Below, one piece after another: positions 43,736 to 51,237 of a stretch of 64,000 bases of DNA. Position 1 is the stretch's first letter. The number at the start of each line of letters is the position of its first letter. The DNA comes from Patescibacteria group bacterium. Its GTDB lineage: Bacteria > Patescibacteriota > Patescibacteriia > Magasanikbacterales > UBA922. The position numbers and the translations under genes are program-made. The stretch covers positions 5,478 to 69,477 of the forward strand of contig JBAZZL010000001.1 of NCBI GenBank assembly GCA_041658785.1. The letters are read 5' to 3'. The notes under the pieces were generated by a model, which was given only the letters and a program-made list of their open reading frames with translations, did not search any database and had not been told where the DNA came from.

Positions 43736-44575
43736 ATGAGCTGTAGAAGAATATCGGACAGATGTGATAAAATAGATATGATTCTTTTTATGTTCAACGA
43801 ATTGTTTCGCAATAAATACCGTATCGCATCAGCCCGCCATCCGAATTGGAATTACACGTCCGTTGGGCGTTATTTTGTGACGATTTGCACGGGCGGACGG
43901 ATTTGCCATTTTGGCAAAATTGAAAATGGTGGTATGATATTATCCCCGACGGGCAGAATTGTTCGGGAGGAATGGTTGAAAACGCCGCGAATTCGCGATA
44001 ATATAAAATTGGACGCGTGGGTGGTGATGCCGAACCATTTGCATGGGATTGTGGTGATAAAAACATTGGGGGAAAATAAAATGGCGGTAATGTCAGGTTC
44101 AACGACAAATGGCGGTGATGAAAACGTGGGTGATGGGAATGATGCGGGCGGTGGGGAAAACGTTGGTGACGGAATAAACGTTGGCGGTGGGAATAACGTT
44201 GGCGGTAGAGACGCCCCGCCGGGGCGTCTCTACGATTGCATTCCACCAAACGATTGCATTCCACCAAACGATTGCATTCCACCAAACGATTGCATTATTA
44301 CCAACGTTGACAATGCATCCGTGAACGCAATCAACCGATCGTCCAATACCGGCGGCCCCAATCCCAATTGGAAACCCAATTCGTTGGGTTCAATTGTCAA
44401 CCAATTTAAATCAATTTGCACCAAACGGATTCGTTCGGCCGGACATTCGGATTTTTCCTGGCAGGCGCGATTCCACGACCATATTATCCGCAACGAAATC
44501 GCGTTGAATAATATCCGCCGATATATTAAACAAAATCCCCAAAAATGGGGTACGGATTGTTTTCATGTTTTATGA
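43736..44575 (+). CDS. IS200/IS605-type Y1 (HuH) transposase, REP-associated (RAYT-like), with a roughly 100-aa low-complexity and palindrome insert
   Basis: HuH motif WVVMPNHLHGIVVI; C-terminal SWQARFHDHIIRNEIALNNIRRYIKQNP block. Insert = G/N/D-rich segment, 29-nt palindrome (44205-44233) and 4x DCIPPN from an 18-bp repeat (44231-44296). Confidence 0.6.
   Translation: MSCRRISDRCDKIDMILFMFNELFRNKYRIASARHPNWNYTSVGRYFVTICTGGRICHFGKIENGGMILSPTGRIVREEWLKTPRIRDNIKLDAWVVMPNHLHGIVVIKTLGENKMAVMSGSTTNGGDENVGDGNDAGGGENVGDGINVGGGNNVGGRDAPPGRLYDCIPPNDCIPPNDCIPPNDCIITNVDNASVNAINRSSNTGGPNPNWKPNSLGSIVNQFKSICTKRIRSAGHSDFSWQARFHDHIIRNEIALNNIRRYIKQNPQKWGTDCFHVL
44205..44233. repeat. Perfect REP-like palindrome GTAGAGACGCCCCGCCGGGGCGTCTCTAC inside the RAYT ORF
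   Basis: 13-bp perfect arms. A second copy with an added 18-bp direct repeat sits at 45215-45261 inside holA. Confidence 0.85.
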
Positions 44576-45708
44576 TTATATTTTTATACGGCCCGGACAC
44601 CTTCCGTAGCCGGCAACAATTGAAAAAAATGATCGCCAAGTTCAAACATGACCGCGACCCGCAAGGGCTGAATGTGGTTCGTTTGGACGCGGAAAAAGAA
44701 GAAGACACCCGCCGGGTTACGAGCGAAATTTTGGCTACGCCGTTTTTGGCCGAGCGGCGGATGGTGGTGATTGAAAATTTGTTAAATTCTAAACAGACGG
44801 ATTTATTGGAAGGGTTATTGAAAAGAATTGAAGAAAAAAAAATGCCGGAATCAAACGTGATTATTTTTTGGGAAGCGCTGGACGATCCGGCGCAAAAGAA
44901 AAAAGGGGATGAAACGGCAACGCCAAAAACCAAGGCGGCGAAAGAACTGTTCGCGCGTTTGCAAAAAGAAAAATACGCCCAGCGGTTTGAATTATTTTCC
45001 GGCGCCAAACTGGCGACCTGGATCGCGGGCGAAGTAAAAGAACGCGGCGGCGTCATTGACCGGCCCGCGGTCGATTATCTGGCCGCGAACGTGGGGGGCG
45101 ACATGTGGCGGTTGAATTCGTTGATTGGACAATTGGTGGCGTATTGTTATTCCGAAGGCGGCGACGGTGCGTTGCGTGGGGACGCCACGGCACATGGGGA
45201 CACCCCGGCGGCGGGTAGAGACGCCCCGGCGGGTAGAGACGCCCCGGCGGGGCGTCTCTACGCCGTTGACAGGGTTGCGGAGGCAATACGGGCAAAGGAC
45301 GTCCAATTGTTTCTAGACGAACGCGCCGACGACAACATTTTCAATCTGGTAGACGCCATTGTCGCGAAAAATCCCAAACAGGTTTTTGTCATGATTCAGG
45401 AACAATATAATAAAGGCGAGGACGCGCAGTATATTTTTGCGATGTTAATAAGGCAGTTTCGTATTTTGTTGGAACTCCGAGACATGTTTGACCGCGAAGA
45501 TAATATCCAGAGCGGCGTTCTGGCGCAAAAGTTGGGGCTCCATCCGTTTGTGGTGAAAAAATCACTGCCTTTGGTCAAGCGATACACCATGGCGGAATTA
45601 AAAAACATTTACGAACGCCTGCTTGAGCTGGATATCCAAACAAAAACCGGCCAGGGCGGCCAGTCGTTGTTGTTGGATATTTTCGTTGGGAGAATCTGCG
45701 CGGAGTAG
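44572..45708 (+). CDS. holA: DNA polymerase III delta subunit
   Basis: About 380 aa, clamp-loader delta-like N-terminal (IIFLYGPDTF) and C-terminal helical domains. ATGA overlap with the RAYT stop. Convergent with rpsT, a common arrangement. Contains an in-frame REP-like insert (AGRDAPAGRDAPAGRLY). Confidence 0.65.
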   Translation: MIIFLYGPDTFRSRQQLKKMIAKFKHDRDPQGLNVVRLDAEKEEDTRRVTSEILATPFLAERRMVVIENLLNSKQTDLLEGLLKRIEEKKMPESNVIIFWEALDDPAQKKKGDETATPKTKAAKELFARLQKEKYAQRFELFSGAKLATWIAGEVKERGGVIDRPAVDYLAANVGGDMWRLNSLIGQLVAYCYSEGGDGALRGDATAHGDTPAAGRDAPAGRDAPAGRLYAVDRVAEAIRAKDVQLFLDERADDNIFNLVDAIVAKNPKQVFVMIQEQYNKGEDAQYIFAMLIRQFRILLELRDMFDREDNIQSGVLAQKLGLHPFVVKKSLPLVKRYTMAELKNIYERLLELDIQTKTGQGGQSLLLDIFVGRICAE

Positions 45709-46057: not shown

Positions 46058-46222
46058 AATGGGGTGAATTGTTTATTGGTTTAAGGGTTTATGAGTGATT
46101 GATTAATGATTGTTACACTGTTAAATTGTTAAATTGCTTCATTGTCTTACTGTTTTCTTATGACTTACGGCTTATAACTTACAGCTGTCGTGCGAAGAGT
46201 ATAGCGGAAATGACCGCCGCTG

Positions 46223-47065: not shown

Positions 47066-47377
47066 AAATTTGGTTATTGGATTATTAGTTTAAGGGCTTT
47101 GGATCTAATCTACCCCGCTTTAGCGGGGGTTCGTGGAGCTTTAGCTCCTGCGAACGTAACCAGAAACTGGTAATTAGTAATTGGTAATTGGTTTTAAAAA
47201 TAATCGTTAATTACCAATTATCCTGCCGCTCCGCATTGTGCGGGGTGGGACGACTTACTGTTTACTATCATCAATTTGCCTTACTCTGCTTTATTTGTTA
47301 TCGTGCGGCGAGTATAACGGCAATCACCAATTTATGTCAACAGTTTTTGGAGGCCGACCCATAAACCAATAAACCTT

Positions 47378-48496
47378 TCACTCCTCCCCCCTCGGCCCCT
47401 CTATCGCGAGCGGTTCAATCGTTCTCTCTCCTTCCGTAATTCTCATTACATCCTTATCAACTTTACCTAGCTCTTTATATGCCGTGTTATAGCTATTAAC
47501 GGTCGTGCCTAGGTTGGTGCCGAGTTTTTTCATGTAGTCCTCGTAAGCATTGATATGCTTGCCGAGCATTTCCACGTTTTTTCTAATTACCATAGCGCTC
47601 TCTTCAATTTTCAAGGCCCGCAGTCCCTGCAAGACCGTTTGCAAATACGCGGCAAAAGTGGTGGGCGAGACGATGATCACTTTTTTATTGTTAAACGCGT
47701 ATTCAATCAGACTTTTCGTGTTTACCTTTACCGCGCCCACCTCGTTGACTAACAGATCATAATAAATCGCTTCGGCCGGAATAAACATAAAAGCGAATTC
47801 CAGAGTGCCGTATTTGGGTTTAATGTATTTAGCGGTTTCGTCAATCCGTTTTTTCAGATCATTTTTAAAGTCCTTTTCATATTCTTCTTTTTGCCGCTCG
47901 TCGATCGCTTCCAAAACGCGATTATAGTTGTCTAATGAAAATTTAGCATCCACCGGAATCAGGCCGTCTTTGGTTTTCACTACTGCGTCCACGGTGTCGC
48001 CGTCTGGAAATGAATACTGCAATTCAAACGCAGTCGGCGGCAGGATATTTTCCAAAACTAATTGCAATCCGGCCTCCCCGAGATTGCCGCGCTGTTTTTG
48101 ATGAGTCAAGACCTTTTGCAGATTGTTTAGCTGTTCAGAAAAACCGATCACCTGCTGATTGGTTTTGTCCAGACTAGTTAATTTTTCCGTGATTTCCGAA
48201 ATCATTTTGGTACTCTGGCCGCTGATGCCCTGGATAATCCTGGCGTTTTGGCCAAACTGCTCCTGCAAGGTTTTATTAAGGTTCTGCTGGGTTTCGTTCA
48301 TGGTCTTGTGCGTCACGCTCATTTTTTCATCAAACACCCGCGCGAGTTCCTGCATCTGGTTTTGCAGCATGACGAAGAGGTTTGGTTCGCCTTCTTTGGG
48401 TTTATTATTTTCCGACAGTTTTTTGTATAGAATAAAAAGAATAGCGAGCGTGGCGACTAGTCCGATGGAGAGGATGATTAATAAAGTAGTTTGCAT
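47378..48496 (-). CDS. rmuC: DNA recombination protein RmuC
   Basis: N-terminal TM, long coiled coil, C-terminal RmuC domain (FSFPDGDTVDAVVKTKDGLIPVDAKFSLDNY...FAFMFIPAEAIY). Confidence 0.8.
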   Translation of the reverse strand: MQTTLLIILSIGLVATLAILFILYKKLSENNKPKEGEPNLFVMLQNQMQELARVFDEKMSVTHKTMNETQQNLNKTLQEQFGQNARIIQGISGQSTKMISEITEKLTSLDKTNQQVIGFSEQLNNLQKVLTHQKQRGNLGEAGLQLVLENILPPTAFELQYSFPDGDTVDAVVKTKDGLIPVDAKFSLDNYNRVLEAIDERQKEEYEKDFKNDLKKRIDETAKYIKPKYGTLEFAFMFIPAEAIYYDLLVNEVGAVKVNTKSLIEYAFNNKKVIIVSPTTFAAYLQTVLQGLRALKIEESAMVIRKNVEMLGKHINAYEDYMKKLGTNLGTTVNSYNTAYKELGKVDKDVMRITEGERTIEPLAIEGPRGEE

Positions 48497-48499
48497 ATT

Positions 48500-48763
48500 T
48501 TACCGAACAAATTCTAAAGATAATTTTACTGATTTGTTGTCTGACGGCAGTAAAATCACTTGATTGGGGTATTTTTCTTTTAGAGCGGAGATGAATTCGT
48601 CGGCCCACGAGGGAGTCAAGACCGCTACGCCAGAAAAATCAATCTCTATTTTTTGATCAGGCCTAACATCATTTAAAATATAGGCTCGGGTTGCCAGCCA
48701 TGCCTCTTTAGCCGCCGGCCGGGAGCTCAAAATTGTGCCAAATTTTTTTAACTCAAGTCTCAT
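48500..48763 (-). CDS. DUF4325 (STAS-like) domain protein
   Basis: 87 aa. IEIDFSGVAVLTPSWADEFISAL is the characteristic DUF4325 core. 3 nt upstream of rmuC and 8 nt downstream of the ATPase gene. Confidence 0.65.
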   Translation of the reverse strand: MRLELKKFGTILSSRPAAKEAWLATRAYILNDVRPDQKIEIDFSGVAVLTPSWADEFISALKEKYPNQVILLPSDNKSVKLSLEFVR

Positions 48764-48771
48764 AATACTAA

Positions 48772-49533
48772 TTAAAATTCTATTATTGCCGCCGTGCCTT
48801 TAACGTTTTTCTCTGCCTTTAAAAATTTTATCCCCCCATTTTCTATGAGGCACTTTCCCTGGCCGGAATAAAACGTGAGTGTCAGTTTATTTTCTTCTAT
48901 TACCCGTCTAACAAATTTCAAACCATTGCCACGGTGTTCAGGCGAGCGGCCGGAGATGATTTCGGTAAAGGCCGTTCGTAGCGCTTCGGTATCATCGGCA
49001 ATGTTCGGGCGGATTTTTTTTAAAGTTGTCAGCACTCCCTGTCCTCTGTCTGCCAGCATGATAAGCCGTTCAGGCAAATCTACTTTAAAAAATACTCCAG
49101 GGATATCGGGCCAATTGCCCAAATTATGATCATATGAATTGTTGCCTATTTCTCCAATCACGGCTACAAGCAGGTATGATAGCGATTCGTCTAATCCGCT
49201 GTCAAGTAATGCCTTTAGTATTCGTTCGGTTCTAAATTGAAAAACATCTCTTGTCGGACAATAGAAGTCTTTATTGTTAATAATTTCCGCCTGAATATTA
49301 ATCACCCACAAAATTGTTTCTTGAATTAATCTTTCCTTTGGAGTCATTGGTAGATGATAAAGCACCCGCGGAGGAACACCGCTTTTTTGGATTAATTCTC
49401 GTTCTTGGAGTTTTTTTAATTGGCGAAAAACAGCCGGGGCGCTAAAACCAATAAAATCAATAATTTTTTTAGGTGTTGTCTGCCCTTGCTCTTGAATAAA
49501 TTTATATATTTTTTCAGCAGTATTTGTTCGCAT
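48772..49533 (-). CDS. Winged-HTH plus GHKL (histidine-kinase-like) ATPase protein
   Basis: N-terminal wHTH (KIIDFIGFSAPAVFRQLKKLQERELIQK). C-terminal Bergerat-fold motifs: N box EIGNNSYDHN, D box LADRGQGV, G2 HRGNGLKFV. Confidence 0.65.
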   Translation of the reverse strand: MRTNTAEKIYKFIQEQGQTTPKKIIDFIGFSAPAVFRQLKKLQERELIQKSGVPPRVLYHLPMTPKERLIQETILWVINIQAEIINNKDFYCPTRDVFQFRTERILKALLDSGLDESLSYLLVAVIGEIGNNSYDHNLGNWPDIPGVFFKVDLPERLIMLADRGQGVLTTLKKIRPNIADDTEALRTAFTEIISGRSPEHRGNGLKFVRRVIEENKLTLTFYSGQGKCLIENGGIKFLKAEKNVKGTAAIIEF

Positions 49534-49778
49534 ATTTCATAGTTTATGGTTTATTGTATATAAAATGTATTATAAACTATATACTTAATTTTGTCAATAC
49601 ACGGGTGTGGATAAACAAAAAATCCGCCTCATCAGCGGATTTTTTTGTCCTTATTCTTTGCCTCATTTGCTTTAGAGCTGAGAAAAAGAAAGGGAAACCA
49701 GCTTGTCTTGGATGAGACTTGAATCCTGTATCGATTCCTCCCGAAAATGTTTTTGCCCGCCCCGAAGTGAATCGAGGC

Positions 49779-49934
49779 GGGCGTTGTCCTACTTCTCCGC
49801 CTTTTCGGCAGGAGGTTCGGGGTTTGGCCGCCGAATGACCTGATTCGGCGGTTGGTTGGTGTAGGTGCGCATTGACCGGTCAAGGCCGAAACCCCCGCGG
49901 ATCTCATAGTGTATCCTCGGGATCCACACTTTTT
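49779..49934 (-). CDS. Small GC-rich ORF (51 aa) with a strong SD (AGGAGG about 7 nt upstream)
   Basis: Hand-translated MTRQKVWIPRIHYEIRGGFGLDRSMRTYTNQPPNQVIRRPNPEPPAEKAEK. Followed by the hairpin gcccgccccgaagtgaatcgaggcgggcg. No family recognised. Confidence 0.3.
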
Positions 49935-50114
49935 GTCTTGTCATGGCAAAACCTCCTAATTAAAGTTTTGCATATTTGTATATTTTGTAAATCATATTTA
50001 TCAATATATAAGTATAAGTTTGTTATAATTTGCTTATTTTTTATAAAATTATAAAATAATGTAAATTAAGATTGACATAATTTAAAGGATAAATTATAAT
50101 ATCATTGATATTAT

Positions 50115-50933
50115 ATGGACAAGAATTTAGAACAACTCGGTTTGGACAAAACAGAGTCAAAAATATATTTGGCTTTGCTTGAACTTGGCCCCTCAACCGT
50201 TAGTGAGATAACTAAAAAAGCCAGTGTGACGCGCACGCTTGGCTACCATGTGCTCCAAAAACTCGGCTGGTACGGGTTGGTGGATCGGGTTTCTGGACGC
50301 GGGAGCAAAATTATTTTTTCCGCGACGCATCCGCGCCAATTGGTTCAACACTTACAAAATAAAAAAAATACCTGGGAAAAAAAGTTGAAAGAGGCAGAGA
50401 AGCTCTTGCCAGAATTGATTTCTTTGTATAAAATTGCGGAGAAGCCGACGATTCGCTTCCAGGAAGGTTTGGTCGGGATTAAAAACACTTATAGCGAAAC
50501 CTTGGAATCAAAAACAGAGATTTTTTCTATTCTTGATATTGAGGGCTGGGATATTCCGGAGTTGCGCCAGTTTGGCAAGGATTACAACCGTGAACGAAGC
50601 AGACGAAGAATTAAAGAACGTTTTTTGATATTAGACACGCCCCAAGCCCGGGAATGGATGAAATTTTACAAGGGATCGTTAAAATACACGGATTATCGTT
50701 GGATTAGGTCGGATCAGCTACCCGGAATAGCGGAGTTCGGCGGGGAAATTAATATCTATGAGGATAAAGTGGCGATGATGCTCTTGAAAAAGCCCAACAG
50801 AATGGGTATAATGGCGCAGAGTTCGGCTTTGGCGAATATTTTGAAGGGGCTCTTTGAGCTCGCCTGGCAAGCAGGAACACCGGCGCGGAGAAAAAGACCC
50901 CGTAGTTCAACGGATAGAACAAGACACTCCTAA
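50115..50933 (+). CDS. TrmB-family transcriptional regulator (wHTH)
   Basis: N-terminal TrmB HTH (ESKIYLALLELGPSTVSEITKKASVTRTLGYHVLQKLGWYGLVDRV) plus a C-terminal domain. The ORF 3' end overlaps the tRNA-Arg gene by 38 nt, so the true stop is uncertain. Confidence 0.6.
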   Translation: MDKNLEQLGLDKTESKIYLALLELGPSTVSEITKKASVTRTLGYHVLQKLGWYGLVDRVSGRGSKIIFSATHPRQLVQHLQNKKNTWEKKLKEAEKLLPELISLYKIAEKPTIRFQEGLVGIKNTYSETLESKTEIFSILDIEGWDIPELRQFGKDYNRERSRRRIKERFLILDTPQAREWMKFYKGSLKYTDYRWIRSDQLPGIAEFGGEINIYEDKVAMMLLKKPNRMGIMAQSSALANILKGLFELAWQAGTPARRKRPRSSTDRTRHS

Positions 50934-50967
50934 CGTCTAGATACAGGTTCAATTCCTGTCGGGGTCA
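50896..50967 (+). tRNA. tRNA-Arg (CCT)
   Basis: Hand-folded: perfect 7-bp acceptor GACCCCG/CGGGGTC, D-stem GTTC/GAAC, anticodon loop CTCCTAA, T-arm ACAGG-TTCAATT-CCTGT, discriminator A. Confidence 0.75.
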
Positions 50968-51059
50968 CCGAGTTCATGATGCATGATGCACACAACACGA
51001 CCCAATTTGGACAATTCGTGATGAATCATGCTGTGTGCATCATGTATCGTGATAAAAAC
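50968..51059. repeat. MITE-like family 2 copy between tRNA-Arg and tRNA-Ala
   Basis: catgatgcatgatgcacacaacacgacccaatttggacaattcgtgatgaatcatgctgtgtgcatcatgtatcgtg aligns to 24123-24205. Confidence 0.65.
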
Positions 51060-51132
51060 GGGCTCGTAGCTCAGCTGGTAGAGCACGGCATTCGCATTGC
51101 CGGGGTCAGGGGTTCGAATCCCCTCGAGTCCA
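51060..51132 (+). tRNA. tRNA-Ala (CGC)
   Basis: GGGCTCGTAGCTCAGCTGGTAGAGCACGGCATTCGCATTGCCGGGGTCAGGGGTTCGAATCCCCTCGAGTCCA; G3:U70 pair present. Confidence 0.85.
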
Positions 51133-51237
51133 CTGTTTCGTGTTCATGATGTATAATACATGTAGCGTAATACATTACAATTGTATACACTAGTGTATAC
51201 AAAAATTGGTCAAAAGCCAATTTTTTATTATTTTGTC

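Follow-up and report, generated by a model that had tools for sequence, protein, structure and literature searches.

A conserved gene pair encoding an HTH-GHKL protein and a DUF4325 STAS-like partner in Patescibacteria, with rmuC as a lineage-local neighbour

On a stretch of 64,000 nucleotides (nt) from a Patescibacteria group bacterium (assembly GCA_041658785.1, contig JBAZZL010000001.1, positions 5,478 to 69,477; hereafter the window), three minus-strand genes follow one another with almost no space between them, which raises the question whether such tight packing reflects a functional system. The first gene encodes a protein with a winged helix-turn-helix (wHTH) in front of a predicted GHKL ATPase domain, the second a small DUF4325 protein and the third RmuC. 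In a first-pass annotation made from the sequence, the first two had been read as a partner-switching pair of the RsbW/RsbV type, and this pair had been linked to RmuC, either in a regulated DNA-processing or anti-invader module or through transcriptional control of rmuC. Our analysis indicates that the GHKL-DUF4325 pair is very probably the unit and RmuC a passenger; the coupling to RmuC is ordinary synteny, and the value for follow-up lies in the conserved HTH-kinase/STAS pair with its candidate operator. The annotated gene borders, with gaps of 8 nt (48764-48771, GHKL/DUF4325) and 3 nt (48497-48499, DUF4325/rmuC), were confirmed by our open reading frames (ORFs) and by the genes called independently on the source contig (ENA k141_305148, 125,764 bp). 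In window coordinates, the three genes and their parts are:

48772-49533, minus strand: 253-amino-acid (aa) protein, wHTH plus predicted SpoIIAB/RsbW-like GHKL domain (from ORF, Pfam, alignment and fold)
49354-49521, minus strand: wHTH of the 253-aa protein (residues ~5-60)
48775-49260, minus strand: GHKL core of the 253-aa protein (residues ~92-253)
48500-48763, minus strand: 87-aa DUF4325 protein, STAS fold (from Pfam and structure model)
48608-48610, minus strand: codon of the invariant Ser52 of the 87-aa protein
47378-48496, minus strand: 372-aa RmuC, N-terminal transmembrane segment plus nuclease-like RmuC domain (from Pfam)

Gene neighbourhoods were reconstructed from six-frame ORFs and iterated hidden Markov model (HMM) searches for 80 loci, the best 80 among at least 583 GHKL relatives that came from a pattern scan with one genome per species. 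They span Magasanikbacteria, Peribacteria, Uhrbacteria, Moranbacteria, Falkowbacteria, Roizman-, Gottesman-, Shapiro-, Ames-, Terry- and Buchananbacteria and WWE3, and are numbered L001 to L080, with L001 the closest among the matches listed (68% identity); downstream genes were counted over 79 of them. Immediately downstream of the GHKL gene and on the same strand, a DUF4325 gene was found in 75 of the 79 loci at distances mostly between -29 and +30 nt, and most of the loci without it are cut by contig ends. Clustering of all neighbourhood genes revealed no further gene family in more than about 10 of the 80 neighbourhoods. The immediate neighbours of the pair are diverse housekeeping genes (RecA, MreB, SecA, aminoacyl-tRNA synthetases, FtsK, DnaG, NusA, RuvC, DnaB, GyrB, trigger factor). 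Two loci came from one assembly in a single case (L043 and L047), and the occurrence of the pair is near single-copy.

The identity of the third gene as rmuC stood firm, the 372-aa protein matching Pfam RmuC (PF02646) with 183.4 bits against a cut-off of 26 (E = 6.8e-54). Like RmuC of E. coli (YigN), it combines an N-terminal hydrophobic segment with an RmuC domain, whereas the equivalog model of the E. coli protein gives it 50.5 bits, far below the cut-off of 810, and only in this sub-lineage does it stand behind a kinase-STAS pair. The gene occurs somewhere in seven of the loci, all of which we place among close Magasanikbacteria, and lies directly downstream of the pair in 4 of 79 (L002-L005), at distances between -17 and +20 nt. 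In L001, rmuC is separated from the DUF4325 gene by 640 nt that contain small ORFs, L010 shows the order rmuC-S20-GHKL-DUF4325 with rmuC upstream of the pair, and in L079 rmuC is 3.6 kb away. L001 to L005 are the nearest Magasanikbacteria relatives of the window; the other approximately 70 loci, including most Magasanikbacteria (L006-L017), have unrelated housekeeping neighbours and no triad. Since the rmuC-bearing loci also keep the S20 gene and holA, the adjacency is explained as inherited local synteny, and rmuC is a lineage-local housekeeping neighbour of the pair. Conservation of the triad across Patescibacteria, which the first-pass annotation had set out as a check, was thus not borne out beyond the closest clade; co-localisation does exist in relatives (L002-L005), and local synteny accounts for it.

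A functional triad, in which the partner-switching pair would control RmuC as a regulated DNA-processing or anti-invader module, is very unlikely. The narrow spacing of the genes and the four loci with rmuC in the same place would fit it, as would the reported transcriptional coupling of DUF4325 genes elsewhere to the PIN-nuclease group PIN.4 (PMC5499597) and the match of the 372-aa protein to the RmuC-domain model of a DRT defence system in PADLOC-DB 2.0 (E = 1.3e-17). However, about 70 of 79 loci lack the triad, the arrangements in L001 and L010 break it up, and the shared S20 and holA genes mark the remainder as synteny. The neighbours scanned around the RmuC that matches the DRT model contain no reverse-transcriptase domain. 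In the same database the DUF4325 protein had no match and the GHKL protein had weak wHTH-type matches only (E about 0.01), so that no defence model covers the pair, and the genomic context is one of housekeeping genes.

Inside the three-gene operon, no terminator-like site was found after a gene end, a result that would also suit the triad. Together with the tight spacing, it indicates that rmuC is probably co-transcribed with the pair in the lineage of the window. Transcriptional control of rmuC is plausible in this lineage, where the gene stands behind the pair's promoter, and not beyond it; the DNA-processing or anti-invader module is not upheld.

A motif of ~30 nt (minus strand AAACCCTTAAACCAATAAAC...) was observed directly 5' of the start codons of the S20 gene and of a 280-aa gene (46058-46090 and 47067-47099), and it occurs once more, inverted, across the stop codon of rmuC (47357-47384). 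It may be a shared 5' untranslated region (5'UTR) or regulatory element.

For the 253-aa protein, Pfam supports the annotated N-terminal winged helix by an HTH_24/MarR match at residues 5-51 (HTH_24 E = 4.4e-7 at residues 5-49), and the GHKL assignment follows from fold and motifs. The homologue alignment revealed invariant N, G1 and G2 boxes (GE128IGN132NSxDH136N, D162RG164xG166 and R201G202NG204LK), which agree with the Bergerat fold in having an N-box of the type E..N..H, a G1 box DxGxG and a G2 box resembling GxGxGL. In a fold search the top structural matches of the GHKL domain were SpoIIAB, UsfX and RsbW, its nearest folds being anti-sigma kinases rather than MutL, GyrB or Hsp90. According to the structure model, the 253-aa protein is thus a small anti-sigma-type GHKL domain behind a winged HTH. 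Four residues N-terminal to the ATP-binding core are also invariant (C92, D96, F98 and R101); the helix that bears them presumably corresponds to the partner-binding helix of SpoIIAB with R20.

Searching 1.84 billion cluster representatives (50% identity) with a profile of the GHKL core gave only 625 clusters at E <= 1e-3, of which 104 reached E <= 1e-30, and the full-length proteins among the best 150 matches had ~190-276 aa, except for one of 320 aa. As judged from these profile matches, the family is a compact and separate one. Its mean column identity is 37% (80 sequences), compared with 52% for the DUF4325 partner.

The N-terminal domain varies within the family. In 41 of the 80 relatives it is an HTH labelled MerR/HTH_17 by Pfam, and a MarR-type wHTH (HTH_24) is found in about 13-18, corresponding to the Magasanikbacteria clade that includes the window. 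Approximately 20 relatives, ~190 aa in length, have no HTH and keep the DUF4325 partner. Independent fusions of MerR-type and MarR-type HTHs were considered and rejected, because the N-terminal domains align in register and the promoters share an ATAG core; the two types may be one diverged HTH.

The 87-aa protein passed the profile check for DUF4325 (PF14213; 37.2 bits against a gathering cut-off of 23, E = 2.4e-9), and its listed homologues, bar one, carry the same domain. Its structure model (pLDDT 95.8) has a STAS fold and matches MlaB, SpoIIAA and RsbV, in line with its annotation as STAS-like. Eight residues are invariant in 74 of 74 DUF4325 members from the genome loci (G9, L12, R15, F43, P51, S52, W53 and N76). 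Of these, Ser52 stands at the N-terminus of helix 2 (H51-64) in the model, which we take to be the topological place of the phospho-acceptor Ser58 of SpoIIAA, with the register read from the order of secondary-structure elements and not from a superposition. Phosphorylation of Ser52 is conceivable, somewhat less probable than its opposite.

In two genomes, both halves of the pair were also found in one polypeptide, whose gene lies no more than 6 kb from the split pair:

L044:4295-5359, minus strand: fused 355-aa paralogue with weak wHTH, HATPase_c_2 and DUF4325 in one chain
L080:11417-12481, plus strand: fused 355-aa paralogue with weak wHTH, HATPase_c_2 and DUF4325 in one chain

HATPase_c_2 is a clear match in these proteins (E about 1e-7), which can be aligned with each of the two window families (E = 0.002 and E = 4e-5) and contain the identical three modules in identical order in similar genomes, the difference being that the window family is split into two genes. 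A HATPase_c_2-DUF4325 chain argues for physical interaction of the GHKL and DUF4325 proteins. The annotation as a pair of the RsbW/RsbV type is supported by folds of the SpoIIAB/UsfX/RsbW and SpoIIAA/RsbV classes, by the adjacency in 75 of 79 loci and by the fused paralogue.

How such a pair might act is indicated by the region upstream of the GHKL gene, which contains the following elements:

49569-49597, minus strand: operon promoter, TTGACA (49597-49592), 17-nt spacer and TATAAT (49574-49569)
49539-49580, minus strand: candidate operator, ATAGTTTA (49580-49573) over the -10 element and inverted TAAACTAT (49546-49539) just 5' of the ATG
49617-49645, no strand assigned: bidirectional intrinsic terminator, 11-bp stem flanked by A and T runs

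The promoter matches the sigma-70 consensus at 12 of 12 positions, and the orthologues in L001-L017 are preceded by an equivalent TTGACA promoter. The terminator forms the upstream boundary of the operon. Conservation of the upstream intergenic region, as revealed by blastn among relatives, is limited to the last ~63 nt before the start codon, and this segment holds ATAGTTTA and TAAACTAT. In the 75-nt promoter-proximal segments of 17 loci of the wHTH clade, ATAGTNTA/TANACTAT occurred 38 times (29.8/kb) against a background of 0.32/kb in whole loci, an enrichment of ~94-fold; shuffles gave 0.78 ± 0.91. The promoter cluster is the sole cluster of the ATAGTNTA motif in the 64-kb window, and the same was found in 15 of the 17 loci.

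MerR-type relatives showed 61 ATAG[ATG]TT sites in 36 promoters, i.e. 10.6/kb versus 0.61/kb elsewhere in their loci. Members of this type (L021-L079) have two to four direct copies of TG(C/T)ATAG(A/T)TT ~90 nt upstream of the GHKL gene, which are often spaced by ~21 nt and overlap the -35 (TGTATAGATTTGACA) and -10 regions. These copies are absent in HTH-less members, where three ATAG[ATG]TT sites were counted in 15 promoters (1.2/kb). The motif thus tracks the presence of the HTH, which is good indirect evidence for HTH binding and autoregulation. It is likely that the operon is autoregulated through the HTH.

A candidate internal promoter in the GHKL gene (TTGACA-18-TATCAT, 49205-49176) was considered a chance occurrence, as it is kept in L001 alone and its hexamers lie on conserved codons.

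Taking these results together, we favour, with moderate confidence, a partner switch that has DNA binding as its output and not the sequestration of a sigma factor. Gene order, folds, catalytic motifs, the promoter and the association of motif enrichment with an HTH are observed, whereas we infer that the HTH binds DNA, that the GHKL and DUF4325 proteins touch each other, that phosphorylation takes place and in which direction regulation runs. The GHKL protein would bind, via its N-terminal HTH and as a dimer (assumed by analogy with SpoIIAB), to the ATAGTNTA repeats over the -10 element and in the 5'UTR and would repress its own operon. The DUF4325 protein would dock on the GHKL domain, as SpoIIAA/RsbV do on SpoIIAB/RsbW, and might receive a phosphate on Ser52. 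Either event, ATP-dependent docking or phosphorylation, would alter the binding to DNA, so that the partner switch would act directly on transcription, and rmuC would be expressed from the pair's promoter in this sub-lineage. The idea in its widest form, according to which the pair would be a Patescibacteria-wide, sigma-free partner-switching transcription factor, that is, a DNA-bound RsbW-like kinase released or locked by its STAS partner via the ATP or phosphorylation state, with rmuC under its control in this lineage, is tentative and rather doubtful.

Several results weigh against a partner switch that acts on DNA. Contrary to what the annotation of an ATPase would lead one to expect, the 253-aa protein had no match at E < 0.1 to Pfam HATPase models and missed the gathering threshold of HATPase_c_2; of its 80 relatives, eight matched HATPase_c_2 (PF13581), with a best E of 3.3e-4. 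Against PDB sequences, phmmer and profile searches with this protein gave wHTH regulators or noise only and no GHKL relative, and its hhalign comparison with an approximate SpoIIAB sequence was not significant, though the N, G1 and G2 boxes were in register. Likewise, the 87-aa protein matched DUF4325 alone in Pfam and no STAS model, its profile search of PDB sequences gave no STAS chain, and hhalign with an approximate SpoIIAA sequence was not significant. The kinase assignment rests on fold and short motifs because there is no sequence-level link to the PDB, SpoIIAB or SpoIIAA. In the fused paralogue, the position of Ser52 is occupied by Ala. A PP2C/SpoIIE-type phosphatase was not recurrent in the neighbourhoods, and a crude regular expression for its motif, which is a weak test, found none in the 64-kb window. 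The promoter motifs are AT-rich and resemble -10 elements. Finally, the ~20 HTH-less relatives keep the partner, which means that the core pair must have a non-DNA target there.

The last point leads to a canonical anti-sigma module, in which the GHKL protein would sequester a sigma factor or another protein, the DUF4325 protein would be the anti-anti-sigma factor and the HTH would be dispensable and serve autoregulation only. Beyond the HTH-less relatives, anti-sigma kinases as the top fold matches and the invariant residues C92, D96, F98 and R101 on the presumed partner-binding helix speak for such a module. Yet sigma-factor genes are not among the recurring neighbours of the pair in the 80 loci, and most members combine a DNA-binding domain with matching promoter repeats, which makes DNA a direct target in most lineages. 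We consider the anti-sigma module unlikely.

A toxin-antitoxin-like or defence-associated cassette, consisting of an AbiE-like autoregulated HTH protein and its partner, is most unlikely. It draws on a weak AbiEi_4 match in 4 of 80 N-terminal domains, on the compact, apparently autoregulated two-gene layout and on toxin-related genes in the vicinity: genes for the AbiEii nucleotidyltransferase toxin immediately precede three HTH-less pairs on the same strand (L027:4962-5606, L042:3414-4064 and L076:408-1028) and also occur nearby in L043 and L065, and Fic/DOC genes were found within 6 kb of the pair in eight loci (L006, L019, L022, L030, L035, L061, L064 and L065). However, PADLOC has no match to the pair, neither protein contains a recognisable toxin domain, and the neighbours are overwhelmingly housekeeping genes. 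The near single-copy occurrence and the high conservation across Patescibacteria, with the column identities given above, also disagree with such a cassette. As to the proximity of AbiEii and Fic genes, both chance in toxin-rich genomes and a real link were considered.

The partner switch with DNA binding as its output can be compared with known systems. The window pair is like SpoIIAB-SpoIIAA and RsbW-RsbV of Bacillus (PDB 1l0o, 1tid and 6m36) in fold and pairing. It differs from them in that the kinase gene precedes the STAS gene, the kinase has an N-terminal HTH and apparently binds its own promoter, no linked gene for a sigma factor or PP2C phosphatase was found, the sequences have diverged so far that the Pfam models HATPase_c_2 and STAS miss the window proteins, and the serine motif is PSW(A/G)DE instead of DSSG. 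In the SpoIIA and Rsb operons of Bacillus the antagonist gene comes first. From the fused 355-aa proteins, which are HATPase_c_2-positive and have Ala at Ser52, the window family differs in these properties as well as in being split. MlaB, the STAS subunit of MlaFEDB (PDB 7ch8_K and 6xgy_B), has an ABC ATPase as its partner and not a GHKL protein, and no Mla genes are near the window pair.

Further upstream, two of the annotated features were recovered, one of them with corrected borders:

49789-49944, minus strand: 51-aa GC-rich ORF with a strong AGGAGG Shine-Dalgarno sequence, also called by the gene caller of the source
50115-50933, plus strand, divergent: TrmB-family regulator

The small ORF is present as annotated, with its position being 49789-49944 and not 49779-49934. 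It had no Pfam match and was not conserved beside the pair in any relative examined; its transcript also ends at the terminator at 49617-49645. A reading of this ORF as an RNA gene drew no support from Rfam, a search of its region giving no gathering-level match and all sub-threshold matches being this terminator hairpin. The TrmB-family assignment was verified by Pfam (E = 8.2e-15). The last ~38 nt of this ORF overlap a tRNA-Arg(CCT) gene (50896-50969), which is followed by tRNA-Ala(CGC) at 51060-51133, and the basic C-terminal tail of the ORF is translated tRNA sequence. Genes of the TrmB family are repeatedly found close to the pair in the wHTH clade (L001, L003, L004, L007, L011, L015, L042 and the window) and are multi-copy paralogues, with three within 5 kb in L004 and genes on both sides of the pair in L007.

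Elsewhere in the window, a 29-nt GC-rich perfect palindrome, GTAGAGACGCCCCG(C/G)CGGGGCGTCTCTAC, was observed in two copies ~1 kb apart (44205-44233 and 45233-45261), with further stretches of note at 45193-45244 and 44232-44321. The copies lie inside long ORFs, namely a 279-aa ORF (43736-44575) and holA (44545-45708), where they are read as peptide repeats of the RDAPAGRLY type, and four 18-nt tandem repeats adjoin the first copy. Its appearance suggests a small palindromic repeat element that is tolerated within coding regions.

Full-text literature searches gave no description of an HTH-GHKL/DUF4325 module, DUF4325 turning up in three incidental mentions only, among them the coupling to PIN-nuclease genes cited above, and searches on partner switching and on RmuC in Patescibacteria gave nothing on a GHKL-DUF4325 module. 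For annotation, the locus is a warning that tight gene spacing does not equal a functional system, as the link to RmuC vanishes outside one sub-lineage. In the small genomes of Patescibacteria few regulators can be recognised, and most of these bacteria cannot be grown alone. If the proposed mechanism is true, the pair would rank among the small number of regulators conserved in such reduced genomes, and the recombination-limiting RmuC would be under its control in this Magasanikbacteria lineage. An anti-sigma-type kinase joined to a DNA-binding domain, with an operator, would give a testable entry to gene regulation in Patescibacteria, and the pair would extend partner switching from the control of sigma factors to the direct control of a promoter.

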